Shown piece after piece: positions 9,781-59,502 of a stretch of 64,000 nucleotides of DNA (its first letter is position 1; every line of letters starts with the position of its first letter). The translations under genes were made by a program, and so were the position numbers. The notes below the pieces were generated by a model. That model searched no databases and was not told the origin of the DNA. It saw nothing but the letters and a program-made list of their open reading frames with translations. The stretch lies in assembly GCA_965277715.1 (NCBI GenBank), contig OZ255836.1:192001-256000 (forward strand). Reading direction: 5' to 3'. This stretch comes from Gammaproteobacteria bacterium. Lineage in GTDB: Bacteria; Pseudomonadota; Gammaproteobacteria; JBCCGL01.

Positions 9781-12700
9781 ATGCTATGCAGGTATACCAA
9801 CAAAGGGTTGTTGCTGATTGTATTTTCATTGCTGATAACGGCGTGTGGTGGCGAAAACGCCTCAACACTACCGCTACCACCACCTGCTGGCGATTCAACT
9901 AGCGGCTCCCAGGTCATCCTTGGCCCTATTGTCGGGGCAACAGTCAGTGCAGCGCTGGCCAGTAATACCGCCAACACTATCGAAACCACCACCACTACCG
10001 GAAGTGCCACCAACTTGAATAGTGCAGGCCGCTTTTCTCTACAGTTGACCGGTGTCACTGATGGTGTCTGGGTGCTGGTCAGTGTGACGGGGGGTAATGA
10101 CATCGATGCTGACGATAATGGCGTGCTGGATGCCACCCCCACCGCCAACCAAGGCACAATAAGGGCACTGGGCAAAGCGGCGGACTGGCGCTCTGGCAAC
10201 GCCAATATCACCGTTCTTTCAGAAATACTGGTCAACCGTCTGCTCAATGGCGGGATTGATCTCAATACCCTCACCGATAGCCAGGTCGAAAGTGGGTTGA
10301 ATGCCACCAGTGTGCAATTACTACAAACCAATGCCGATGTTAACGGTGACAATATCAGCAACTATCAGGACATCCTCGGCTTTACTCCGCAAAATCAAAA
10401 CTACCCGGCTAGCGTGGCATTGGCTGATCTCAACACTATTGCTGTCATGCTGGAAAGCGGTAACGCTGCACAAACAGATAATCTAATCACGGCGTTGCTT
10501 AATCAGCCACCGGTGGCCAATGCGGGCAGTGACCAGGTTGTTGCTGAAGGTAGCACGGTGAGCCTCAACGCCACCGGCACGGATACGGATGGCACTATCG
10601 ACCGTTATGCCTGGGTGCAAAACGCGGGCACCACTGTTACCTTAACAGGGGCTGCCACAGCGGCAGCCACCTTCGTCGCGCCCCTATTGCCCGCCAATAC
10701 TGCCACCGAGACCTTGAGTTTTACCCTGACAGTTACCGATAACCTCGGCGCCAGCGCCACAGATACAGTGGTCGTCACCCTCCAGGACAGCAATAACAAT
10801 GCACCTGTAATAACCAGCGCCAACAGCGCCAGCGTCAGTGAAAATACCACTGCTGTACTCACCCTCACCGCCAGTGACGCGGATACGACGGGTGAAACCA
10901 CCACTTACGCGCTCAGTGGCGATAACGCCAGCTTATTTACCCTTAACGGTTCGGCGTTGGCCTTCCAGAATATGCCGGATTTTGAGGTGCGTCCCTGTGG
11001 TGTCGATAACATCTGTAACCTAATAATAACCCCCAGCGATGGTACCAATACCGGGCCTGGACAGACATTTGCCGTCACCCTGGTGGATGTCAACGACAGT
11101 GCCCCGATCATTACCAGTGGCAGTACCGTTAGCGTTTTGGAAAATACCACGGTGGTACTCACCCTCACCGCCAGTGACGCGGATACGACGGGTGAAACCA
11201 CCACTTACGCGCTCAGTGGCGATAACGCCAGCTTATTTACCCTTAACGGTTCGGCGTTGGCCTTCCAGAATATGCCAGATTTTGAGGTGCGTCCCTGTGG
11301 TGTCGATAACATCTGTAACCTAATAATAACCCCCAGCGATGGTATCAATACCGGGCCTGGACAGACATTTGCCGTCACCCTGGTGGATGTCAACGACAGT
11401 GCGCCGGTAATGACCAGCGCCAGTACGGTCAGTGTCGACGAAAACACCACGGTGGTACTCACCCTCACCGCCAGTGATGCCGACAGCACCGGCGAGGCGA
11501 TAGACTTCACGCTTGGTGGTAGTGATGCATCGAGTTTTCGTCTTGTGGGTTCAGCGTTGAGTTTTAGCAGCGCGCCCGACTTTGAAACCCCGGTATGCGG
11601 TGATAATGTCTGTACGATTACCCTCACGCCCAGCGATGGGCTTAATACCGGCAGTGGGCAAACTGTAACGGTTAGTGTCCAGGATCTGAACGACACTGCG
11701 CCGGTAATGAGCAGCGCCAGTACGGTCAGTGTCGACGAAAACACCACGGTGGTACTCACCCTCACCGCCAGCGATGCCGACAGCACCGGCGAGACGATAA
11801 GCTTCACGCTTGGTGGTAGTGATGCATCGAGTTTTCGTCTTGTGGGTTCAGTGTTGAGTTTTAGCAGCGCGCCCGACTTTGAAACCCCGGTATGCGGTGA
11901 TAATGTCTGTACGATTACCCTCACGCCCAGCGATGGGCTTAATACCGGCAGTGGGCAAACTGTAACGGTTAGCGTCCAGGATCTGAACGACACTGCGCCG
12001 GTAATGACCAGCGCCAGTACGGTCAGTGTCGACGAAAACATCACGGTGGTACTCACCCTCACCGCCAGTGACGCGGATACGACAGGTGAAACCACCACTT
12101 ACGCGCTCAGTGGCGATAACGCCAGCTTATTTACCCTTAACGGTTCGGCGTTGGCCTTCCAGAATATGCCGGATTTTGAGGTGCGTCCCTGTGGTGTCGA
12201 TAACATCTGTAACCTAATAATAACCCCTAGCGATGGTATCAATACCGGGCTTGGACAGACATTTGCCGTCACCCTGGTGGATGTCAACGACAGTGCGCCG
12301 GTAATGAGCAGCGCCAGTACGGTCAGTGTCGACGAAAACACCACGGTGGTACTCACCCTCACCGCCAGTGATGCCGACAGCACCGGCGAGGCGATAGACT
12401 TCACGCTTGGTGGTAGTGATGCATCGAGTTTTCGTCTTGTGGATTCAGCGTTGAGTTTTAGCAGCGCGCCCGACTTTGAAACCCCGGTATGCGGTAATAA
12501 TATCTGTACTATCACCATTACCCCCAGTGACGGCGTCAATATTGGCAGCGCACAAACGATCACAGTAACCGTTAACGACCTCGCCGCCATCACTCTGGCG
12601 AATAGCAATATCAACGAGGGAAACAGCGGTACGACAGTAGTCAATGTCAACGTTAGCCTCGCGTCGATAGCTACCGCCAGTGTCAGTTTCAGTGTGAGCG

Positions 12701-13620
12701 ACGGCACAGCGACTACAGCAGATAATGACTACAGCGTAGCCAACAGCACCGGCACCCTTAACTTTACCGGTGGCTCGACAACCGCAGTGGTAGCTATCAC
12801 CATCAATGGCGACACACAAGTAGAGAGCGATGAAACCCTCAGCATTGTACTAAGTAACCCCATCAACGCCGAACTACAGGGCATTAGCACAGCAATATTG
12901 ACGATCAACAACGATGATTCAGCAGCCCCAACGCTTAACGACACCGGCGTTGTGTTTGGTGCAGACACCAACCTGAACAACAGTGGTTGCACCAGCGCCG
13001 ATACGGTTATCGCCCAGCAGGATTGTTCGCGGGGCCGGGATGTCACCAATAACGACGCCAGCGATGGCCACGCGGGGTTTAGTTTCACCAAAATCAGCAG
13101 CACAGGTCAACCCCTGGCGGCTAGTGCTAGCGCTTGGGCCTGTACACAGGACAATATCACCGGTCTGATGTGGGAGGTAAAAACCAATGATAACGGCCTA
13201 CACGATAGGGGTGATATGTACACTTGGTATAGCACCGACAGTAGCAATAATGGTGGCAATGCGGGTACCGAAAATACTACAACCAGCTGCTTTGGCTACA
13301 ATAATGCCGATGCAGCGACCTTTTGCAACACCCAGGCGTATGTGGCACGCATTAACGCGGCGGGCCTATGCGGTTTTACTGATTGGATCTTGCCGGGCCG
13401 TGAACAACTGCGCTCGATAGCCAATCGCAATAGTTTTAATCCGGCTATCGATACCGCTTATTTTCCAAATACCCGATCCGATAATTTTTATTGGTCGTCG
13501 TCGCCCCTCGCCAACAACAATGCCAACGCGTGGGACTTCTTCTTCTTCGACGGCAGCGATAGCAACTTCTTCAGCAAGAGTAGCAACCATTTTGTTCGTG
13601 TTGTTCGCGCCAGTCAGTAG
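9781..13620 (+). CDS. Large surface lipoprotein: PKD-like domain, six cadherin-like repeats, Calx-beta domain and C-terminal DUF1566 (Lcl/CLec) domain; DGR target 1
   Basis: Lipobox LLITA-C; NQPPVANAGSDQ; repeated PDFE and D(V/L)ND-AP motifs; INEGNSG..DGTAT..GDTQVESDET; DNITGLMWE..LCGFTDWILP..YWSSS..VRVVR. Confidence 0.9.
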   Translation: MLCRYTNKGLLLIVFSLLITACGGENASTLPLPPPAGDSTSGSQVILGPIVGATVSAALASNTANTIETTTTTGSATNLNSAGRFSLQLTGVTDGVWVLVSVTGGNDIDADDNGVLDATPTANQGTIRALGKAADWRSGNANITVLSEILVNRLLNGGIDLNTLTDSQVESGLNATSVQLLQTNADVNGDNISNYQDILGFTPQNQNYPASVALADLNTIAVMLESGNAAQTDNLITALLNQPPVANAGSDQVVAEGSTVSLNATGTDTDGTIDRYAWVQNAGTTVTLTGAATAAATFVAPLLPANTATETLSFTLTVTDNLGASATDTVVVTLQDSNNNAPVITSANSASVSENTTAVLTLTASDADTTGETTTYALSGDNASLFTLNGSALAFQNMPDFEVRPCGVDNICNLIITPSDGTNTGPGQTFAVTLVDVNDSAPIITSGSTVSVLENTTVVLTLTASDADTTGETTTYALSGDNASLFTLNGSALAFQNMPDFEVRPCGVDNICNLIITPSDGINTGPGQTFAVTLVDVNDSAPVMTSASTVSVDENTTVVLTLTASDADSTGEAIDFTLGGSDASSFRLVGSALSFSSAPDFETPVCGDNVCTITLTPSDGLNTGSGQTVTVSVQDLNDTAPVMSSASTVSVDENTTVVLTLTASDADSTGETISFTLGGSDASSFRLVGSVLSFSSAPDFETPVCGDNVCTITLTPSDGLNTGSGQTVTVSVQDLNDTAPVMTSASTVSVDENITVVLTLTASDADTTGETTTYALSGDNASLFTLNGSALAFQNMPDFEVRPCGVDNICNLIITPSDGINTGLGQTFAVTLVDVNDSAPVMSSASTVSVDENTTVVLTLTASDADSTGEAIDFTLGGSDASSFRLVDSALSFSSAPDFETPVCGNNICTITITPSDGVNIGSAQTITVTVNDLAAITLANSNINEGNSGTTVVNVNVSLASIATASVSFSVSDGTATTADNDYSVANSTGTLNFTGGSTTAVVAITINGDTQVESDETLSIVLSNPINAELQGISTAILTINNDDSAAPTLNDTGVVFGADTNLNNSGCTSADTVIAQQDCSRGRDVTNNDASDGHAGFSFTKISSTGQPLAASASAWACTQDNITGLMWEVKTNDNGLHDRGDMYTWYSTDSSNNGGNAGTENTTTSCFGYNNADAATFCNTQAYVARINAAGLCGFTDWILPGREQLRSIANRNSFNPAIDTAYFPNTRSDNFYWSSSPLANNNANAWDFFFFDGSDSNFFSKSSNHFVRVVRASQ
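10795..12588 (+). repeat. Intragenic tandem array of two cadherin-repeat types (300-bp A, 297-bp B) in the order A-A-B-B-A-B
   Basis: Near-identical DNA units: A carries TTYALSGDNASLF..PCGVDNICNL, B carries FTLGGSDASSF..PVCG(D/N)N(V/I)CTI. Confidence 0.9.
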
Positions 13621-13632
13621 CCTTGGTTTTTG
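13489..13632 (+). repeat. DGR variable region VR1 plus conserved 3' IMH-like tail
   Basis: Aligns to 14579-14724; differences sit at codon positions 1-2 of NNC/NNT codons; shared tail TTTGTTCGTGTTGTTCGCGCCAGYCAGTAGCCTTGGTTTTT. Confidence 0.88.
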
Positions 13633-13651
13633 GTGAGGTGAGGGTGCCGAA

Positions 13652-14127
13652 ATGAATCCGTTTATGCCGACGATTGTCCGAGATGTCGAGCGCCTTAGCT
13701 ATTGGGGGCATTACAGTCATGCTAATAGTTTTCGCCTACGTCAGCAACTGATGCAGCAATTTCCCTGGTTACCCGTTTTATTTTCAAGCCATCAGGGAAA
13801 GCTGATACGCAAGTATTACCCACCCAAACAACTTCATTGGTGTGAAGGCAGGGCTAATCTTGTCAGTCAGTTGCAGTATTTTCGCCACTTTTACCCACAG
13901 GTGTTGTTGTGTTAGTACAGTTGGGCTATCAGATGTTGCTGGTAACGCCTGATATGGCGATCGGTGATATCTTGCAAAAAGCCCCGCGTTATCAATGGAA
14001 CAAAGCCATAAAACCCACGCAATCGGCAGTATGGGTTAGTGAACAAGGCTATCTTCAAAACGGTGGTCGCCACCGTATCGCCACCCATTTTACCAACTAT
14101 ATTTCCCCCCTCAATAGTTATGACTAA
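13652..14127 (+). pseudogene. DGR core remnant: Avd-like N-terminus fused to a DGR RT C-terminus and MutS-I-like (MSL) tail; frameshifted near 13910
   Basis: MNPFMPTIVRDVERL resembles an Avd start; SYWGHYSHANSFRLRQ..FPWL resembles a DGR RT thumb end; FRHFYPQVLL/LVQLGY resembles MutS-I; no YxDD motif. Confidence 0.7.
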
Positions 14128-14146
14128 CCACCTGGAGGCAGTGACC

Positions 14147-14710
14147 ATGCCCGGATTAGAACACCCCAAAGTAACGCAATTACGTTACGCGCTAGTATTA
14201 CTGCTCTGCTGTGTGGCAAGCGGTATCGCTAGCGCAACGTGCAATAGCAATATCGTGCGTACAGCGCCAGACAACCGCTACCAGATTCAAGCAGGGGGCG
14301 CAGAGGTGCTGGATACACAAACCAATTTGATCTGGCAACGCTGTAGTCTAGGGCAAACCTTTAATAATCTAGGCACCGCAGAGACCAGCGATGATCGCTG
14401 TGATAACAGCGCCACAGCTTACACCTGGCAGGGGGCGTTACAGGCAGCGCAGGGTATTGCGACTAATAGTGGTCAGGCGTGGTTTTTGCCGAATATCAAC
14501 GAGCTGGCCAGTCTTGTCGAGCTGGCGTGTAGCCCGGTTATCAATGAAACCGTTTTTCCTGACACACCATCGTCTACTTATTGGTCGTCGTCGCCCGTCG
14601 CCTCCAACAATATCGCCGCGTGGATCCTCGACTTCAGCAGCGGCGGCGATGACTTCAGCAGCAAGAATGACAACAGCCGTTTTGTTCGTGTTGTTCGCGC
14701 CAGCCAGTAG
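14147..14710 (+). CDS. Secreted DUF1566 (Lcl/CLec) protein; DGR target 2
   Basis: GGAGG RBS at 14134, hydrophobic signal peptide, VLDTQTNLIWQRCSLGQ, WFLPNINELASLV, YWSSS..AW..F..G..VRVVRASQ. Confidence 0.9.
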   Translation: MPGLEHPKVTQLRYALVLLLCCVASGIASATCNSNIVRTAPDNRYQIQAGGAEVLDTQTNLIWQRCSLGQTFNNLGTAETSDDRCDNSATAYTWQGALQAAQGIATNSGQAWFLPNINELASLVELACSPVINETVFPDTPSSTYWSSSPVASNNIAAWILDFSSGGDDFSSKNDNSRFVRVVRASQ

Positions 14711-14724
14711 CCTTGGTTTTTTGG
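14579..14724 (+). repeat. DGR variable region VR2 plus IMH-like tail
   Basis: Same length and frame as VR1, with the same invariant scaffold codons and 3' tail. Confidence 0.88.
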
Positions 14725-14782
14725 AAGGGGAGTGTAAAAGGTGGAGGGTTGAACAATTTGGATACACCCATAAGCCCACTTT

Positions 14783-14830
14783 CTAGCCCCCATGTATTTA
14801 CTTGTATGCAAGCTAATACAAGGTAGGCGG
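14783..14830. repeat. Degenerate copy of a 48-bp palindromic element
   Basis: CTAGCCCCCATGTATTTACTTGTATGCAAGCTAATACAAGG; homologous to 27438-27485 and 52586-52633. Confidence 0.7.
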
Positions 14831-14990
14831 TGCTCCATTGTATATATGGAGTATTTCGACAATGCCATGTGGCTCGTCGATATGGTAGTACACATGATAA
14901 CGCCGGTATACCAGCATACGTATGTGCGGATACTGTGCGTATCGTGCCACGTTCGCATGAGGAAAAAGCGGTAGCGTATCTTCAATAAAA
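14813..14990 (-). pseudogene. RelE/ParE-type toxin C-terminal fragment (not in the ORF track)
   Basis: Manual translation: FIEDTLPLFPHANVARYAQYPHIRMLVYRRYHVYYHIDEPHGIVEILHIYNGAPPTLY*; no start codon. Confidence 0.65.
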
Positions 14991-15044
14991 CAGACACCCT
15001 AGCATGAGAAGAGTTTTCGCCAATTGTGCGTGATGTGATTCTCT

Positions 15045-15132
15045 TTGACAGAATAGTTTGCAAAAAACGGGCGCAAAAAAGAGGCAAATCGGCTTTTCTG
15101 TAGTAGAGCAGTCTTGAACCCGACAGGCTCCT
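15045..15132. repeat. Solo end of a dispersed MITE-like repeat
   Basis: AAATCGGCTTTTCTGTAGTAGAGCAGTCTTGAACCCGACAGGCTCCT matches the reverse complement of 52879-52967. Confidence 0.75.
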
Positions 15133-15177
15133 CGCCCTGATATCGCGCTTTTGTCAAATTCACGTTACAGTACCTAG

Positions 15178-15423
15178 ATGGCTACTATGATTTCTGAAGT
15201 TTATGAGGCGTTCCGTGTCGTAGGCGTACCGGAAGATAAGGCCCGTGAGGCGGCAGAGGCTCTTTCTGCTGAGAGTTTGGCGACTAAAGGGGATATTCAA
15301 TCGCTTAAAGAACAAACGAAACCTGACATTGCCCGATTGGAGACTAAAATTACCCTGTTGCAATGGATGGTCGGTCTGGTGATTGTGGTTGAAATATTGC
15401 CTTTGCTGAAGACGCTGTTTTAG
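15178..15423 (+). CDS. Small coiled-coil protein with C-terminal TM helix (DUF1640/CCDC90-like)
   Basis: EVYEAF..GVPEDKAREAAEA, LATKGDI, LLQWMVG pattern. Confidence 0.7.
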   Translation: MATMISEVYEAFRVVGVPEDKAREAAEALSAESLATKGDIQSLKEQTKPDIARLETKITLLQWMVGLVIVVEILPLLKTLF

Positions 15424-15447
15424 GTTCTTATTAACCATTGAAATAGA

Positions 15448-15530
15448 CGCAACTTCAAGAGCCTCAACCGCCTTATTCGTTTTTTTGCGCTAATCAGTAG
15501 CCTTGGTTTTTTTGGGGAGGGGTGTGAAGG
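15448..15530 (+). repeat. Eroded third VR 3' end plus IMH-like tail, with no target gene
   Basis: CGC AAC TTC AAG AGC CTC AAC CGC CTT ATT CGT TTT TTT GCGCT AAT CAG TAG CCTTGGTTTTTTTGG parallels the VR1/VR2 ends. Confidence 0.7.
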
Positions 15531-15708
15531 GTTGGCGTGATATTTGTGGTGCACAAATCCAGTTCAGTTTGTTTTGTTCGACCGGACTTCCTAAGCCAAT
15601 TCAAAATTTCTACTAGCTTATGAATGCCCCATTTCCCTTTTTCTCCTGGGCAGGAAATAGTATTAATTATGAGATGAGGCCATGGAAATATTCATATATT
15701 GATCATAT

Positions 15709-16497
15709 TTAAAAATGCGCAAGGTGTGGTTTTATCACCTGCAACATAGCATGGAAAATTTTGGGGTTGGCCGCCACTATCTGCTTACCGTGTAACCAAT
15801 CTTCACCGCCACTGAAATCGCCAATTAAGCCACCCGCTTCACGGATGATTAAACTCCCGGCGGCAATGTCCCAGGGGTTTAACCCGGTTTCCCAAAAGCC
15901 GTCGAGCCTGCCAGAGGCAACATAAGCCAGATCAAGCGCCGCCGCACCCGGTCGCCGGATACCGGTGGTGTGCTGGATAAAATCACGTAACAATGCCATG
16001 TAATGGTCGGTATTTTGTGTTTCAAGGTAGGGAAAACCCGTGCCAAGCAGGCTGTTTTCCAGTGTGCGGTGGTTGGATACGCGCAGGCGTTTGTTATCCA
16101 GCCAGGCGCCGCGCCCGCGTGAAGCGGTGAATAGTTCCTGGCTGACTGGATCATAGATAACTGCCTGTTCGAGCTTGCCGGATTTTTGCAATGCAATGGA
16201 TACGGCAAATTGTGGGAATCCGTGCAGGTAGTTGGTCGTGCCATCCAGTGGGTCGATAATCCACACGTAATCACTGTTACCCGATGCACCGGATTCCTCT
16301 GCCAAAACCGCGTGGTCGGGGTAGGACTGGTGTAGCGTCTGGATGATTTTTTCCTCGGCCTGCCGGTCGACATTCGAGACAAAATCATTGTGTTGTTTTT
16401 TTTCTATCGTCAGTGTATCGATGCGTTCGAATTGACGCATAATAACGTTGCCAGCGGCGCGGGCAGCGCGGATGGCAATATTCAACATAGGATGCAT
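15709..16497 (-). CDS. suhB: Inositol monophosphatase / Nus factor SuhB
   Basis: MHPMLNIAIRAAR, WIIDPLDGTTNY, RRPGAAALDLAYVA, PWDIAAG; divergent from trmJ. Confidence 0.96.
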   Translation of the reverse strand: MHPMLNIAIRAARAAGNVIMRQFERIDTLTIEKKQHNDFVSNVDRQAEEKIIQTLHQSYPDHAVLAEESGASGNSDYVWIIDPLDGTTNYLHGFPQFAVSIALQKSGKLEQAVIYDPVSQELFTASRGRGAWLDNKRLRVSNHRTLENSLLGTGFPYLETQNTDHYMALLRDFIQHTTGIRRPGAAALDLAYVASGRLDGFWETGLNPWDIAAGSLIIREAGGLIGDFSGGEDWLHGKQIVAANPKIFHAMLQVIKPHLAHF

Positions 16498-42591: not shown

Positions 42592-45384
42592 TTGAACGCA
42601 GTTGAAATAGAAGAGGCGATAACCAATTTATCCGAGCAAAATTTTGACCCGGAGGCTTTTCCTTACGCTTTTTTAGAGGCATTTGGCAATAAAGCCACCA
42701 CAATAAAACGGCTTAAAACTGGCTCCTCGAATGCGTCAGATATTAAGGGTGGCGTTTTACAGCGGAATAATATCCACCTTTCGGTCTGTCCCGAAGGTTG
42801 TGTAACGGAGACCTTGAGTAAACTCAAAGCCAGTTCTGAAACCAGCAAGAAAAAAGTTAAATTTGTGCTGGCAACTGACGGCATTGATCTGGAAGCGGAA
42901 GATCTCATATCGGGTGAAACGGTTGCGTGTGCCTACAAAAATTTTCCCGATCACTTCGGTTTTTTCTTGCCATTGGCGGGTATCACCACCGTTAAGCAAA
43001 TCCGCAATAACCCAATTGATATTCAGGCAACCAGCCGCTTAAACCGCCTCTATATTGAATTGTTGAGTACTAACGAGGAGTGGGCTACCAACGAACGTCG
43101 TCACGATATGAACCAGTTGATGACGCGCCTGATATTCTGCTTTTTTGCGGAAGACACTGATATCTTTCTCGGCGACAATCTGTTTACCGCAACCATTGAG
43201 CAGATGACGGACAGTCGTTCTGGCAACACGGGTTTTGTATTGGGTGAAATCTTTCGAGCTATGGATACACATCCCGATAAGCGGGCGGAAGCCAATTTGC
43301 CACGATGGGCTGATGCGTTTCCGTATGTAAACGGCGGGCTTTTTTCTGGCTGTAAAGAGGCGCCCAAATTCAGCCGGATTGCGCGCTCATACTTGCTACA
43401 TGCTGGTAGCCTGAATTGGAAAGAGATTAACCCCGATATTTTCGGCTCAATGATTCAGGCGATTGCCGACGAAGACGAACGCGGCGAACTGGGTATGCAC
43501 TACACCAGCGTGCCCAATATTCTTAAGGTGCTTAATCCTTTGTTTTTGGATGATCTGCGTGAGCAGTTAAAGCTGGCGGGGGATAGCGCCCGTAAGCTGC
43601 TCAATTTACGCAAACGCCTTTCCAATATTCGCGTGTTTGACCCGGCTTGTGGTTCGGGCAACTTTTTAGTGATTGCCTATAAAGAAATGCGCGCTATTGA
43701 AAACGAGATTAATCAAAGGCGAAAGGATGGCCATCAAAAAACAGCGATTCCGTTAACGAATTTTCGCGGCATAGAGCTTAGAGACTTTCCGGCCGAAATA
43801 GCCCGATTGGCATTGATTATCGCCGAATACCAGTGTGACGTGCGCTACCTTGGCCAAAAAGATGCCTTAGCCGAATTTCTGCCACTGAATGCTGTGAACT
43901 GGATTACTTGTGGCAATGCTTTGCGCCTGGATTGGCTGTCTATTTGTCCGCCAACAGGGAAAGCGGTGAAGCTGATGGCAGAGGATTTGTTGGAAATGCC
44001 GCTGGATCAAGTCGATATTGATTTTAAAAATGAAGGAGGGGAAACTTATATTTGTGGTAATCCTCCTTATCTAGGCAGTACTTGGCAGTCTAAGGAACAA
44101 AAAGCTGACTTGGAAAAGATATTTGGACATCGTACTAAAAGTTGGAAGTCGCTGGACTATGTTGCGGGCTGGTTTATGAAAGCCGCTGACTACGGAAAAT
44201 ATACCAACTCAGTTAGTGCTTTTGTTAGCACTAACTCTATTTGCCAAGGGCAGCAAGTTCCTATTCTCTGGCCATTAATTTTTAAAACAGATCATGAAAT
44301 CAGCTTTGCATATACATCTTTTAAATGGGCAAATCTTGCTAACCATAATGCAGGAGTAACTGTAGTGATTGTTGGCATTGCAAATCAGGCTAACAAGGTA
44401 CGGCGTTTATTTTCTACAGATGAAAATGGTCAGACTATTGAAAAGAAAGCAGGCAACATTAATGCTTATTTAGTCGTAGGGGCTAATGTCGAAGTAATAA
44501 AATTAGCTAGCCCCATAAGTATAGTAGGCACAATGGATCGAGGTAATGGCGCTACAGATGGCGGGAATTTGCTTTTAGATAAAATGTCTCTTCATGCTAT
44601 GAATTTAACTCTAAAACGACAAAATAATTTTATACGTCCGTTTTATGGTTCTGCTGAGTATATAAGAGGTCTACAACGATTTTGTCTATGGATTAGCGAT
44701 GAAGATGCTGAAGAATCCAAGAAAATAGAACCTATCAATGAACGAATAGCAGCAGTTAAAACAATGAGACTCGCGAGCAAAAAAGAAGCGACTCGTAAAG
44801 GCGCAGTTTATCCTCATCGTTTTGATGAAAAAAGGCAGATAGGAGATGAAACAGTTTTAATAATACCTCGTGTGTCATCTGAAACCAGAGAGTACCTTCC
44901 GGTTGGATTTTTACCCCCCGAATCAATTGTTAGCGATAGTGCCTTTGCCCTATATGATTCGCCACTTTGGAATATGGCTCTAATTGCATCAAAACTTCAT
45001 ATAGTTTGGATTGCGACGGTATGCGGCAAGTTAAAAACAGATTATCGTTATTCAAATACTATGGGCTGGAATACTTTTCCAGTCCCCAAACTAACTGAAA
45101 AAAATAAAAAAGACCTAACTCGCTGCGCAGAGGATATTCTCCTTACACGTGAAGCACACTTCCCCGCCACCATTGCCGATCTTTACGATCCAAAAAACAT
45201 GCCCGCAGACCTACGACATGCACACGACCGTAATGACGAAGTGCTGGAACGCATATATATCGGGCGACGATTTAAAAACGACACCGAACGCCTTGAAAAA
45301 CTCTTTGATCTTTACGCCAAGATGACGGCCACCACACATACAACAGTGAATAAAACCCGTAAAACCAACAAGAAGGTATCCTGA
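42592..45384 (+). CDS. MmeI-like N6-adenine DNA methyltransferase (YeeA/DnmA-like)
   Basis: FPYVNGGLF, GMHYTS, DPACGSGNF (motif I), GNPPY (motif IV), C-terminal TRD with YRYSNT. Confidence 0.9.
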   Translation: MNAVEIEEAITNLSEQNFDPEAFPYAFLEAFGNKATTIKRLKTGSSNASDIKGGVLQRNNIHLSVCPEGCVTETLSKLKASSETSKKKVKFVLATDGIDLEAEDLISGETVACAYKNFPDHFGFFLPLAGITTVKQIRNNPIDIQATSRLNRLYIELLSTNEEWATNERRHDMNQLMTRLIFCFFAEDTDIFLGDNLFTATIEQMTDSRSGNTGFVLGEIFRAMDTHPDKRAEANLPRWADAFPYVNGGLFSGCKEAPKFSRIARSYLLHAGSLNWKEINPDIFGSMIQAIADEDERGELGMHYTSVPNILKVLNPLFLDDLREQLKLAGDSARKLLNLRKRLSNIRVFDPACGSGNFLVIAYKEMRAIENEINQRRKDGHQKTAIPLTNFRGIELRDFPAEIARLALIIAEYQCDVRYLGQKDALAEFLPLNAVNWITCGNALRLDWLSICPPTGKAVKLMAEDLLEMPLDQVDIDFKNEGGETYICGNPPYLGSTWQSKEQKADLEKIFGHRTKSWKSLDYVAGWFMKAADYGKYTNSVSAFVSTNSICQGQQVPILWPLIFKTDHEISFAYTSFKWANLANHNAGVTVVIVGIANQANKVRRLFSTDENGQTIEKKAGNINAYLVVGANVEVIKLASPISIVGTMDRGNGATDGGNLLLDKMSLHAMNLTLKRQNNFIRPFYGSAEYIRGLQRFCLWISDEDAEESKKIEPINERIAAVKTMRLASKKEATRKGAVYPHRFDEKRQIGDETVLIIPRVSSETREYLPVGFLPPESIVSDSAFALYDSPLWNMALIASKLHIVWIATVCGKLKTDYRYSNTMGWNTFPVPKLTEKNKKDLTRCAEDILLTREAHFPATIADLYDPKNMPADLRHAHDRNDEVLERIYIGRRFKNDTERLEKLFDLYAKMTATTHTTVNKTRKTNKKVS

Positions 45385-47435
45385 TGACGGCGCATAAAGC
45401 TATCCCCTCAGTTTCCGTTAAATACGCCTGCAACGGCAGCTCAAAAAAATCTAATGAGCTGGGTATGCGCGTTATGCAGGAGCGCGCCTTTGAAAAGCGC
45501 GGCGAACAATACTTACTGATTAAATCGCCGCCTGCATCGGGTAAAAGTCGCGCTTTAATGTTTATCGCGCTGGATAAACTGCACCATCAAAATTTAACAA
45601 AAGCCATTATCGTAGTACCTGAAAAATCCATTGGCTCCAGTTTTAATAATGAGCCATTAACTGAAAACGGATTCTATTGGGATTGGGCGGTTGTACCAAA
45701 ATGGAACTTATGCAACGCCCCCGGCGAAGAGGGTGGCAAGGTTAATACTGTAAAAAACTTTCTTGATAGTGATGACCGCATTCTGGTTTGCACCCATGCT
45801 ACCTTTCGCTTTGCCGTAGATCGCTATGGTGTCGGTGTATTTGATAATTGCCTGGTTGCTATTGATGAATTTCACCACGTTAGCGCTAACCCCGATAACA
45901 AACTGGGTGCCCAACTCGGTCAGTTTTTGGTGCGCGATAAAGCGCATATTGTGGCAATGACGGGTTCTTATTTTAGAGGGGACGCCGAGGCCGTCCTTGC
46001 CCCGCACGATGAGGCGAGTTTTGATACCGTCACTTATACCTACTATGAGCAATTAAATGGCTACGAGTACCTTAAAACGCTGGATATCGGTTATTACTTT
46101 TATTCCGGCAACTATACAGATGAAATTCTGAGTGTTCTTAACCCCCATGAAAAAACGATTATTCATATTCCCAATGTAAACTCACGGGAAAGTAGTAAAG
46201 ACAAGATTAAAGAAGTCGAACATATTATCGAAGAACTAGGTAGCTGGAATGGCATCGATGCCGATACGGGGTTTCACTTGGTCAAAACCAGTGCAGGCAA
46301 ATTAATCAAAATAGCGGATTTAGTGGATGACGACCCCGCTAAACGCGATAAGGTTTCGGCGGCTTTAAAACGCCCCGAGGCAAAAAATGATCGCGGCCAT
46401 GTCGATATTATTATCGCCCTTGGCATGGCCAAAGAAGGCTTTGACTGGATTTGGTGTGAGCACGCCTTGACGATTGGCTATCGTTCCAGTCTCACCGAGA
46501 TCATTCAGATTATTGGCCGTGCCACCCGCGACGCCGAGGGAAAGACACACGCACGCTTTACCAATCTTATAGCAGAACCGGACGCCGCAGAAGAAGCGGT
46601 GACCGATGCCGTGAATGACACATTAAAGGCGATAGCAGCCAGCTTATTGATGGAGCAGGTGCTGGCACCCAAATTCAACTTTACACCCAAGGATAACCAG
46701 AACGGCCCTATGGCGGGTTATGGCTACGGTGATAATGGTTATAACCCTGATGGCAGCAATGTTGGCTTTAATGAGCCAACTGGTCAGCTCCAGATGGAAA
46801 TAAAAGGCCTCGCTGAGCCAAAGAGCGAAGATGCGCGGCGCATCTGTCAGGAAGACTTAAATGAAGTGATTACCGCCTTTGTTCAGGATAAGACTTCGCT
46901 TGAACGCGGCCTGTTCGATGAGGAAATGATTCCTGAAGAATTAACGCAGGTTCGGATGGGTAAAATTGTAAAAGATAAATACCCGGAACTGGACGAGGAA
47001 GATTGTGAAGCGGTCAGACAGCACGCTATTGCCGCACTTAACCTGACTCAGAAAGCGAAAGAAATGGTTAACCAAAGCGATCAGACAGAGCAAGGAAGCA
47101 GTACCGCTTTTATCGATGGTGTCAGAAAGTTTGCGATGAATGTACGCGACCTTGATATTGACCTGATTGATCGTATTAATCCATTTAAACAGGCATACGC
47201 GATTCTCGCCAAATCCATGAGTGAAGAAAGCCTCAAACAAGTGGCTATGGTCATCAACGCGAAAAAGCTATCACTCACTGAGGATGAGGCCAGAGAGCTA
47301 ACTTCGCGTGCGATCAAATTTAAGAAAGAGTGCGGACGCCTGCCCGAATTGACCTCTCCTGATCCTTGGGAGAAACGCATGGCTGAAGGTATCGCTTTCC
47401 TTCAGCGTAAAGTCGCGGAGGAAAGCAATGACTGA
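45384..47435 (+). CDS. SF2 helicase/ATPase (YeeB-like)
   Basis: SPPASGKS Walker A, DEFH, MTGS, QIIGRATR; start overlaps the MTase stop. Confidence 0.88.
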   Translation: MTAHKAIPSVSVKYACNGSSKKSNELGMRVMQERAFEKRGEQYLLIKSPPASGKSRALMFIALDKLHHQNLTKAIIVVPEKSIGSSFNNEPLTENGFYWDWAVVPKWNLCNAPGEEGGKVNTVKNFLDSDDRILVCTHATFRFAVDRYGVGVFDNCLVAIDEFHHVSANPDNKLGAQLGQFLVRDKAHIVAMTGSYFRGDAEAVLAPHDEASFDTVTYTYYEQLNGYEYLKTLDIGYYFYSGNYTDEILSVLNPHEKTIIHIPNVNSRESSKDKIKEVEHIIEELGSWNGIDADTGFHLVKTSAGKLIKIADLVDDDPAKRDKVSAALKRPEAKNDRGHVDIIIALGMAKEGFDWIWCEHALTIGYRSSLTEIIQIIGRATRDAEGKTHARFTNLIAEPDAAEEAVTDAVNDTLKAIAASLLMEQVLAPKFNFTPKDNQNGPMAGYGYGDNGYNPDGSNVGFNEPTGQLQMEIKGLAEPKSEDARRICQEDLNEVITAFVQDKTSLERGLFDEEMIPEELTQVRMGKIVKDKYPELDEEDCEAVRQHAIAALNLTQKAKEMVNQSDQTEQGSSTAFIDGVRKFAMNVRDLDIDLIDRINPFKQAYAILAKSMSEESLKQVAMVINAKKLSLTEDEARELTSRAIKFKKECGRLPELTSPDPWEKRMAEGIAFLQRKVAEESND

Positions 47436-48615
47436 GAAGTCAAACAAAGCATTGCTTGAGGAATTGGGCGTTGGTTCAGTTCCTACCAAAAAGAAGACCC
47501 GTTCACCACGCGAAGAACGCGTTATAGCAGGGTTTGAGGAAATCCAACGTTTTATCGAAGAGCACGGCCGTCTCCCGATGCACGGTGAAGATAAGGATAT
47601 ATTTGAACGGTTGTATGCCATGCGTCTGGATAAAATCCTTTCGCAAGAAGAGTATAGAAGCCTTGTTGCGGATATTGATAAGCAAGGGCTACTGAAAGAT
47701 TGGTCACGCATAGCAGAGCCGCAAGCAGAATATCGTAGTGACAAAGAGCTACTTACCGAGCTTGGTATTAATGCGCCAAAAGAAGGTGAAATTACGTTTT
47801 TAAAACATGTTAAACCGCGTGTGGAAGTAAGAGCAGCGGAGGAAATAGGCAGTAGAATACCGTGCGAGAATTTTGACGGTTTTAAACCCATTTTTGATGC
47901 TGTTCAAGAAGAGTTGAAAAGTGGTGTACGCATAACACGCCCCTTTAGAGATAATGCCGAAATCCGACAGGGAGATCTTTTTATATTATCCGGGCAGAAG
48001 GCCTATGTGGCTGAGGTAGGTGAAGAATTTGTTACCGAGTACGACCGCAAAGACAGCCGCCTGCGCGTTATTTACGACAATGGAACCGAAAGCGATATTT
48101 TATTACGCTCTTTGCAAAGAGCACTTAATAAGGACAAAGCGGGACGAAGAATAACCGATAAATCACTTGGCCCACTATTCTCAGGTGACGCTGCTAATGA
48201 AGATTTGGCGAGTGGTACAGTCTATGTTTTACGAAGTAAATCGGAACACCCAACAATACGGGAAAACAGAGCGATTATTCATAAACTGGGGGTTACGGGT
48301 GGAAGCGTGGAAAAGCGCATTGCCAATGCAAAACTGGATCCAACGTATTTAATGGCTGAGGTCGAAGTCGTGGCAACTTACGAACTTTACAATATCAATC
48401 GAACTAAGCTTGAGCATATCTTTCACCGATTCTTTGAACAGGCCAAACTTGATATAAAAATCCATGACCGTTTTGGCACCCTGGTAACACCAAGAGAGTG
48501 GTTTTTGGTTCCTTTGTTTGTTGTCGATGAAGTCGTTGAAAAGATTAAGGACGGCACTATCGGTCAATACTCTTATGCCATGGAGTCAGCCAAGCTGATT
48601 TTGAATCAACACTAA
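47428..48615 (+). CDS. GIY-YIG (T5orf172) nuclease (YeeC-like)
   Basis: GTVYVLRS..HKLGVTGGSVEKRI..LEHIFHRFF..PREWF. Confidence 0.85.
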   Translation: MTEKSNKALLEELGVGSVPTKKKTRSPREERVIAGFEEIQRFIEEHGRLPMHGEDKDIFERLYAMRLDKILSQEEYRSLVADIDKQGLLKDWSRIAEPQAEYRSDKELLTELGINAPKEGEITFLKHVKPRVEVRAAEEIGSRIPCENFDGFKPIFDAVQEELKSGVRITRPFRDNAEIRQGDLFILSGQKAYVAEVGEEFVTEYDRKDSRLRVIYDNGTESDILLRSLQRALNKDKAGRRITDKSLGPLFSGDAANEDLASGTVYVLRSKSEHPTIRENRAIIHKLGVTGGSVEKRIANAKLDPTYLMAEVEVVATYELYNINRTKLEHIFHRFFEQAKLDIKIHDRFGTLVTPREWFLVPLFVVDEVVEKIKDGTIGQYSYAMESAKLILNQH

Positions 48616-58064: not shown

Positions 58065-58918
58065 AAACATATTGACGTTTCACATGGGTAACCAAAGAAA
58101 GGCGCATGCCAAGGCGAGCATGCTCCGATAGTTCCGCTTCAACTTATCATATCGGGTGGCAATCGCTCGAAAATGCTTCAATCGAGCAAACACATTTTCA
58201 ACCAGGCGTCGGTATTTATATAAACACCAGTCGATATCCTCATCGCCTATTTTTGAGTTGCTTCGCCGTGGAATAACCGGAACGGACTTTTTCTGTCTAA
58301 TCTGATGGCGTAACGCCTCGCTGTCATACCCTTTGTCAGCCACCACATACTCGCTTTTTGGCAAGGCATCAATCAATTCAGGAGCTGTTGTGGAGTCATT
58401 AACCTGCCCAGCAGTGATATCAAATAATACGGGCAACCCAAACCCATCTACAATCATGTGTATTTTCCTTGTTTTCCCGCCTCGACTGTTGCCAATGGCT
58501 TGATTTTCATGCCCTCTAGCCCCTGCGCTATGTTGGTGTGCCTTCACAATACTTCCATCAATAAATGCCCATTCTTGATCGGGTTCTTCGACAAGCGCAT
58601 GGAAAATGTTCATTAACTTGCCTTTCGATGACCAGTCATTAACGCGTTTATAAACACTATTCCAGTCACCAAATGACGCCGGTAAATCTCGCCACGGACA
58701 CCCCACACGCAATCGATAAAGAATTCCTTCAACGACTAACCGTAACTTCGGCTTGTCATAAATGCCTTCTTTAAGCATGCTACTCCGTAGCTTCGACCAA
58801 TACCCATCGTTGAGCAATAATCGGGACATGGCAAACTCGTATTTGTTGTTTTTCTCACATCCAATGATACGAGTTTGCCTTTTGTTTCAAAAGCTTATAG
58901 CCAAACGTCAACAGGCCC
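58065..58918 (-). mobile_element. IS5-family element with one intact and one eroded IR
   Basis: IR GGGCCTGTTGACGTTT (reverse complement at 58903-58918) followed by TAG; other end AAACATATTGACGTTT after CTA. Confidence 0.85.
58080..58829 (-). CDS. IS5-family transposase
   Basis: GCPWRDLP, IDGSIVKAHQH, ADKGYDS, YKYRRLVEN. Confidence 0.93.
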   Translation of the reverse strand: MSRLLLNDGYWSKLRSSMLKEGIYDKPKLRLVVEGILYRLRVGCPWRDLPASFGDWNSVYKRVNDWSSKGKLMNIFHALVEEPDQEWAFIDGSIVKAHQHSAGARGHENQAIGNSRGGKTRKIHMIVDGFGLPVLFDITAGQVNDSTTAPELIDALPKSEYVVADKGYDSEALRHQIRQKKSVPVIPRRSNSKIGDEDIDWCLYKYRRLVENVFARLKHFRAIATRYDKLKRNYRSMLALACAFLWLPM

Positions 58919-59290
58919 TAGCACCATTGATTTGTGTTTATCGCTGTTTCCTTGGGCCGATTTTCGAACGACCAAAGGTGCGATTAAATTGCATGTTGGT
59001 TTGAATCATGCAGGATACCTACCCGAATTTGTGTCGATTACCGAGGGTAAAGTACATGATGTTACTATTGGTAAGCTGTTGAGTTTCCCTAAAGGTAGTA
59101 TCATCGCCATGGATAAGGGTTACAATGACTACAATTGGTATAAGCAATTGACTAACAAGGGAATATTCTTTGTCACGCGACTCAAGAAGAATGCTAAATA
59201 CAGGGTTGTCAGTCGTCGTTCGGTATTGAAAGATAAAGGGCTAAGCTGTGATCAGACCATTGAATTTACGGGTGTTCAAACATCAAAAAA
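58919..59290 (+). pseudogene. IS4-family transposase internal fragment
   Basis: STIDLCLSLFPWADFRTTKGAIKLH, MDKGY, FFVTRLK; cut by IS5 on the left and fused to toxin DNA on the right. Confidence 0.85.
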
Positions 59291-59502
59291 ATGGGGCTAC
59301 GCACGGTTATTATCATACTGCATCAAACTTAACAGTAAACACGCAAGTAAGTGCAGGGCAAGTGATAGGGAGCAGCAATTTTTCAGGTCGAGCTACAGGG
59401 TTGCATCTTCACTATACGATTCAGACAGGAGCTACAAGAGCCACGAGAATTGATCCCTTACCATACTTGAGAAATCTAAATCCAAGTACACCAGGTCAAT
59501 GA
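59291..59502 (+). pseudogene. Orphan toxin tip with an M23-peptidase C-terminal half
   Basis: GYYH..VSAGQVIG..SGRATGLHLHY..RIDP. Confidence 0.65.

Follow-up and report, generated by a model that had tools for sequence, protein, structure and literature searches.

Target genes and their shared 3' ends

The window analysed here, a stretch of 64,000 nucleotides from a sponge-associated gammaproteobacterium (GenBank assembly GCA_965277715.1, contig OZ255836.1, positions 192,001 to 256,000), carries on its forward strand two genes whose 3' ends resemble the variable repeats (VRs) of a diversity-generating retroelement (DGR), an element whose reverse transcriptase (RT) miscopies the adenines of a template repeat (TR). 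Target gene 1 (9781 to 13620) encodes a surface-type protein of 1279 aa with cadherin (Pfam Cadherin, E 1.4e-18), Big_9/PKD (Big_9, E 3.2e-16) and Calx-beta (E 1.2e-10) domains and a C-terminal Lcl_C domain (DUF1566, PF07603; residues 1121-1276, E 5.1e-25). Target gene 2 (14147 to 14710) encodes 187 aa that match Lcl_C as well (Pfam E 2e-28). On visual inspection its hydrophobic N-terminus resembles a signal peptide; the start of the gene is confirmed by a 99% identical database protein, P0001, that begins with the same Met. Both Lcl_C matches lie well above the gathering score of the family (88.5 and 99.5 bits, cut-off 34.9). Between the two genes lies what appears to be the C-terminal part of a DGR-type RT, and behind them a third, decayed copy of the repeat.

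Each repeat comprises 132 nt and forms the final 44 codons of its gene, stop codon included: VR1 extends from 13489 to 13620 and VR2 from 14579 to 14710, both on the forward strand. Judged by Pfam family, they would belong to the C-type-lectin-like class of DGR targets. The initial annotation had described a shared 132-bp 3' end with identical scaffold codons in the two DUF1566 genes. This was borne out, with 74.7% identity over 150 nt in blastn, and the codon pairs it listed are as it gave them. Identity beyond the stop codon, which it had also reported, extends for 11 nt and is part of a 42-nt 3' block (13590-13631 and 14680-14721) with a single mismatch in blastn. This block opens with a short GC-rich run, and its conservation extends past the stop codon into a T-run, as in the variable repeats of relatives. 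The sequence that follows VR1 on the forward strand (13621 to 13650), a T-run that turns G-rich, recurs in the alignment after VR2 and after the third copy. Within about 60 nt downstream of the repeats no stable hairpin beyond shuffled controls was found (z 0.77 after VR1, then 1.00 and 0.14).

The differences between both repeats are distributed in an unusual way. Without gaps, VR1 and VR2 differ at 35 positions, which fall 15/16/4 on codon positions 1/2/3 (31 of 35 on positions 1-2). If one codon gap is allowed in each repeat, 26 differing positions are left (13/12/1), and 25 of these lie on positions 1-2. Against a uniform expectation of 2/3, the binomial tails for this excess are 0.0029 without gaps and 3.7e-4 with them. 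Of the four differences at third positions in the ungapped comparison, three arise because of codon indels between VR1 and VR2. The third base of the variable codons is C in 35 cases, T in 5 and G in 2, which amounts to C/T in 40 of 42 and agrees with the initial annotation, according to which the first two positions differ while a third C or T is kept. In contrast, the 107 aligned codons just upstream of the repeats show 194 differing positions (61/61/72) and a nucleotide identity of 39.6%. Therefore, the repeat boundary is sharp, and the bias within the repeats is opposite to ordinary paralogue divergence.

Two points of the initial annotation call for correction. The repeats are not strictly collinear: a conserved Lys occupies codon 30 in VR1 but codon 29 in VR2, with unequal numbers of residues on either side. 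With codon indels on both sides of this Lys, the template cannot be reconstructed exactly.

The decayed third copy (15456 to 15545, forward strand) comprises the final ~57 nt of a repeat together with the shared downstream sequence and is not preceded by a gene. Its repeat part (15456-15511) is 78.9% identical over 57 nt (E 3.6e-7), contains an exact match of 18 nt (15494-15511; blastn) and is not A-rich. When stop-to-stop frames from DGR loci of relatives (about 75 query frames) were compared against the window by tblastn, no Lcl_C coding sequence was detected ahead of it. We read this copy as the relic of a third target.

Adenine signature and a probable reverse transcriptase remnant

Employing gene 2 as query, 49 of 400 genomes of the class matched at E <= 1e-15, and complete DGRs were found in two gammaproteobacterial genomes, G328 and G162. 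In G328 (contig C121) the template lies directly upstream of the RT, which is followed by the target, and 20 of 22 differences between TR and VR are at template adenines. In G162 (contig C72) one template is accompanied by two variable copies. The templates of these two distant relatives can be compared with VR1 and VR2 over a stretch of 25 residues at the start, where all four sequences are collinear, and this comparison is the strongest of the indirect tests. The G162 template encodes Asn at 9 of the 11 positions that vary between the window repeats and at 1 of the 14 invariant ones (Fisher p 2.4e-4), and the G328 template at 8 of 11 and 1 of 14, respectively (p 1.2e-3).

The repeats themselves point in the same direction. 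In the gapped alignment, 19 of the 25 differing sites at codon positions 1-2 have A in one copy (hand count; binomial p 0.007 against 0.5). By the same count, both copies have A at ~11-12 sites, one copy at 19 and neither at 6, and by simple arithmetic these numbers fit an independent replacement of about half of the adenines in each repeat. The six differing sites without A in either copy are left over, and codons 7 and 17 vary though the templates of the relatives have no Asn codon there. The corresponding columns of 120 database homologues are hypervariable (~3 bits of entropy). They hold Y, N, S, G, D and H, the residue set that can be reached from AAC/AAT codons, and K/E/Q/M/W at only 1-8%, compared with 28-64% in the variable columns upstream of the repeat. 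Because of the codon-position bias, the A at 19 of 25 sites, the match to Asn codons of the relatives' templates and the target family, we are highly confident, as far as sequence comparison allows, that VR1 and VR2 are DGR variable repeats.

The best candidate for the corresponding enzyme is an open reading frame (ORF) of 87 aa between gene 1 and gene 2 (13652 to 13915, forward strand), which resembles the C-terminal part of a DGR RT downstream of the RVT_1 domain and contains no catalytic domain. The RT frames of two relatives match it in tblastn at 13697-13783 (55% over 29 aa, E 6e-4) and at 13697-13909 (35% over 72 aa, E 2e-6), and both matches map to RT residues of about 430-495, downstream of RVT_1. 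A profile of five RTs, searched against 1176 six-frame segments of the window, recovered this frame alone (profile positions 412-476 of 564; next E 0.12), with an E value of 1.1e-10 that is inflated, as the five enzymes had been chosen by their likeness to the 87-aa ORF. In the reverse direction, the ORF matched 14 of 399 genomes of the class at E <= 0.01. Each of the five top matches belongs to a long open frame with RVT_1, in some cases together with a C-terminal MutS_I-like domain; a sixth matching frame, an FAD oxidoreductase, was dismissed as a chance match. The ORF has neither a Pfam or NCBIfam match of its own nor an Avd-like match, and a word-index search for longer homologues returned none, which is weak evidence. 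Another frame on the same strand (13909 to 14127) was considered as a continuation of the RT tail. It is collinear with profile positions 533-556, but at E 51 this is not significant, and it likewise lacks Pfam, NCBIfam and Avd-like matches, so that we treat it as a possibility and do not count it as RT.

The RT remnant bears upon the question whether a retroelement was involved at all. Duplication or gene conversion between paralogues might have created the shared 3' ends, followed by positive selection on binding residues. This scenario gains some plausibility from the genome G131 (a single 2.68-Mb contig), where a tandem DUF1566 pair (locus L124, G131:C1:2668840-2670361) has repeat-like 3' ends with identical scaffold codons. 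Its differences fall 12/17/6 on the codon positions, while that genome, with no detectable RT or template, yielded neither an RVT_1 (PF00078) match nor a third copy; an RT stump was not searched for. The pattern is similar but weaker: third positions account for 6 of the 35 differences, and the last base of some variable codons is A or G. The G131 genes are adjacent and differ mostly at positions 1-2 as in the window, but appear more decayed, and this pair is more simply explained as the relic of a lost DGR, likely a parallel case of orphaned DGR repeats. Furthermore, selection does not keep third positions as C/T while both other positions change in ~15 codons, the variable positions correspond to Asn codons of genuine templates from relatives, and an RT remnant lies between the two target genes. 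Taken together, an origin without a retroelement seems highly improbable to us.

While a stump of the RT is present, the remainder of the machinery was not detected at the locus. RVT_1 is absent from the 45 window ORFs scanned with Pfam, and there is no intact DGR-type catalytic domain at the locus. As stated by the initial annotation, the window contains no template: blastn with word size 7 found only VR1, VR2 and the decayed third copy (next match E 0.19). An exact 21-mer of the invariant 3' block occurs in 0 genome contigs, 0 viral contigs and 2 metagenome contigs, and the latter two, read as unrelated coding sequence, were rejected as chance matches. With the 43-aa VR1 peptide, a short-protein search for template-encoded ORFs or fragments gave no candidate, and among 71 HMMER matches none exceeds 55% identity and none has the scaffold of the window. 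The C-terminus of one protein, P0181 (151 aa), resembles a translated template, an Asn-rich DUF1566 repeat of another organism; template repeats are thus sometimes translated by gene callers. With regard to the initial annotation, its DGR interpretation is well supported for the variable repeats, but the cassette is not simply elsewhere, given the RT stump at 13652-13915. We consider it very likely that the locus represents a degenerate cassette, which retains a stump of the RT but has no template.

This conclusion is consistent with the organization of related elements. The TR-RT cassettes of G328 and G162 (L130, L131) have targets that are 39-42% identical to gene 2, their RT possesses the C-terminal region that survives in the window, and their templates have Asn codons where the window repeats vary. 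In addition, their order of template, RT and target mirrors the order of VR1, stump and gene 2. In contrast to the window locus, they are complete, with an RT of ~500 aa that includes RVT_1 and in some cases a MutS_I-like tail; their identity to the window is low, so that they count as distant relatives. A C-terminal MutS domain I was also observed in the DGR-type RTs L145 (G108:C90, 1198-2712), L146 and L144 of relatives (E 6.8e-12, 1.5e-4 and 0.0087, respectively). In the excerpted text of a survey (Wu et al., 2018, PMC5758913), only three RTs with a MutS_I-like C-terminal extension of weak similarity are mentioned. The same excerpts assign DUF1566-type targets to category 'd', which includes all CLec2 repeats and has the Legionella DGR as an example. 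Like these, the window locus has C-terminal repeats in DUF1566/Lcl_C proteins that vary at positions 1-2 of NNC/NNT codons, several targets per element and codon-sized indels adjoining AAC runs. It differs in lacking a template, a catalytic RT and a GC-rich inverted repeat after the variable repeats. Downstream inverted repeats are reported there for only 34% of DGRs, and an architecture of TR and RT without avd exists (Wu et al., 2018).

About 15% of DGRs are multi-target according to the same excerpts, and remote targets more than 100 kb away exist (Wu et al., 2018). This opens a second alternative, our main one, in which VR1 and VR2 are live targets of a complete DGR outside the window and are rewritten in trans, while the local RT stump is the leftover of a duplicated cassette. 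Besides such remote and multiple targets, the near-perfect scaffold identity of VR1 and VR2, including the 11 nt past the stop codon, is in its favor. The codon indels speak against it, as VR1 and VR2 are not simple copies of one present-day template. Yet length differences between TR and VR occur in 7% of DGRs, mostly as multiples of 3 nt that adjoin AAC (Wu et al., 2018).

Sequencing runs and surroundings

Eight listed sequencing runs, which come from four studies, contain the stretch. Of these, five are labelled sponge metagenomes, and the remaining three are assigned to one organism, which probably includes the source. Contigs of four runs (X1, X2, X4 and X8), one per study, were compared with the window over positions 12400-16000. 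Among the differences listed, none falls into VR1 in X1, X2 or X4 (3/3 non-source runs), and none in X8, even though the neighbouring 1.1 kb differ by 4-9 substitutions and small indels in X1 and X2 and the flanks differ by ~0.4-1%. A VR1 without listed difference in four runs from four studies, embedded in diverged DNA, argues against rewriting in trans. For VR2, X1 and X4 have the differences 14598 T>C and 14675 A>G among those listed, both transitions in variable codons and both also present in P0001. Again, two transitions in two runs are far from the re-randomization of many sites expected of a new homing event.

The contig of X2 behaves differently. Past 14602 it no longer follows VR2 but matches 13565-13619, which is the 3' part of VR1, and it is one codon shorter; the same contig shows six substitutions and two in-frame insertions at 14378-14567. 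This VR2 allele may have arisen by gene conversion, may be a divergent allele or may result from an older or trans homing event. Being strongly unlike the VR2 of the window, it is a point in favor of rewriting in trans. Its resemblance to VR1 would also allow an exchange between copies, as the scenario of paralogue conversion and selection discussed above assumes. Overall, the contigs of the four runs and the differences listed for them give no sign of ongoing rewriting for VR1 and little for VR2.

All four runs contain the RT stump. In X2, a 23-nt insertion behind 14059 breaks the frame 13909-14127, which is in keeping with non-coding DNA; the inserted letters are found again shortly downstream in the window, by eye a tandem duplication. 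At 13632, X1, X2 and X4 lack one 5-nt unit of a GGTGA tandem. The VR1 bins of X1, X2 and X4 show extra depth, and contigs break at both repeat ends; judging from the contig end coordinates, we attribute this to the 42-nt repeat in a k=31 assembly and do not take it as a sign of a third copy. Gene 1 contains near-identical internal repeats, cadherin-like units (12400-12541 and 11205-12707), where several contigs per run pile up and break.

Further features of the window are listed for completeness. Between VR2 and the decayed third copy, an ORF of 81 aa (15178-15423) has a coiled-coil-like N-terminal part and a hydrophobic C-terminus by eye; it matched no Pfam or NCBIfam family and nothing Avd-like. 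At 14783-14832 and 15035-15132, several unrelated contigs overlap in every run and then diverge from the window, visible as depth peaks and loose ends. These are probably multi-copy small repeats, possibly resembling miniature inverted-repeat transposable elements. Farther away, an MmeI-type restriction-modification enzyme with all five MmeI Pfam domains, a DEAD/ResIII helicase-like gene and a T5orf172/MUG113 (GIY-YIG-like) gene follow each other at 42592-48615, probably a defence island. Transposase genes are found at 440-2014 (rve/HTH type), 58080-58829 (IS4/IS5 DDE type) and 58875-59453 (an adjoining partial DDE copy). The nearest genomes by RlmL share at most 54% identity, and there are no close relatives for a comparison of synteny.

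A probable degenerate locus and its meaning

How could the present arrangement have come about? We suggest that a TR-RT cassette once separated the large cadherin/Calx-beta/Lcl_C gene from the small gene for a secreted Lcl_C protein. The RT of this cassette would have copied a template RNA rich in Asn codons, miscopying adenines, and the resulting complementary DNA would have replaced the final ~130 nt of each target, thereby recoding the ligand-binding face of the C-type-lectin-like domain. A deletion would then have removed the template and the catalytic two-thirds of the RT gene, about the first 400 codons, and left the C-terminal stump behind. The left edge of this putative deletion lies between about 13646 and 13697, because immediately behind VR1 the sequence still resembles that which follows VR2 and the third copy. 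Recombination between VR1 and the template was discarded as the source of today's arrangement: what follows VR1 is VR-type sequence, and a simple deletion is preferred. VR1, VR2 and the decayed third copy would then be frozen records of the last rewriting, unless a complete element elsewhere serves them in trans. Taken as a whole, a degenerate DGR locus with frozen variable repeats is, in our view, the probable explanation.

Several points weigh against it. Once the inflated profile score is set aside, the independent evidence for the RT stump consists of the first two tblastn matches, obtained among about 75 query frames, and is modest. The searches for a template and an RT cover the 64-kb window only, so that an intact DGR may reside elsewhere in the genome. 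Scaffold codons and a 42-nt block that are nearly identical, with one mismatch, would be expected of a live system too. Contigs drop rare variants, which makes low-level diversification invisible, and the X2 allele of VR2 might be a case of rewriting. Finally, degenerate loci that are served in trans have been published, as the excerpted text of Dore et al. (2024, PMC10907252) shows: among degenerate DGR loci with missing or pseudogenized machinery, some were diversified in trans and one was without variation.

In the degenerate loci of Thiohalocapsa PB-PSB1, key machinery is missing or pseudogenized while variable repeats remain, and one target is undiversified, just as in the window. However, the excerpt describes another RT clade and targets that are putative antigen sensors, and a complete partner locus was identified there (Dore et al., 2024). 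Diversification of degenerate loci in trans is thus a documented process, and together with the scaffold identity and the X2 allele it keeps the idea of a live target pair in play. Set against the constancy of VR1 in four studies, the two mere transitions of VR2 and the codon indels, we regard a distant, active element as possible but rather unlikely, and we retain the degenerate, frozen locus as the preferred explanation.

The locus opens no new mechanism. DGRs with DUF1566 targets and degenerate DGR loci are both already published. A literature search on DGRs and sponge symbionts returned no paper on such an element, judged by titles and abstract openings, and we do not claim that the window locus is unreported. 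Its value is rather that of a clear example of DGR decay, in which the targets outlast enzyme and template, and it cautions that the codon signature alone is no proof of a live system.

For the biology of the symbiont, the locus points to two lectin-like proteins, at the surface or secreted, with binding faces that used to be hypervariable but today do not differ among several samples. These proteins are therefore candidates for the recognition of the host or of a partner. One might speculate that the symbiont lost its local mutagenic machinery, fixed one set of binding-site variants in a large adhesin-like protein and in a small secreted lectin and thereby locked the receptor onto its ligand, or else that a distant element rewrites the repeats under rare conditions; we offer this only as a tentative idea, which may well prove wrong. 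If true, it would represent a natural case of a hypervariable receptor that becomes locked onto its ligand upon stable host association, with variants that are common to the sponge samples of several studies.

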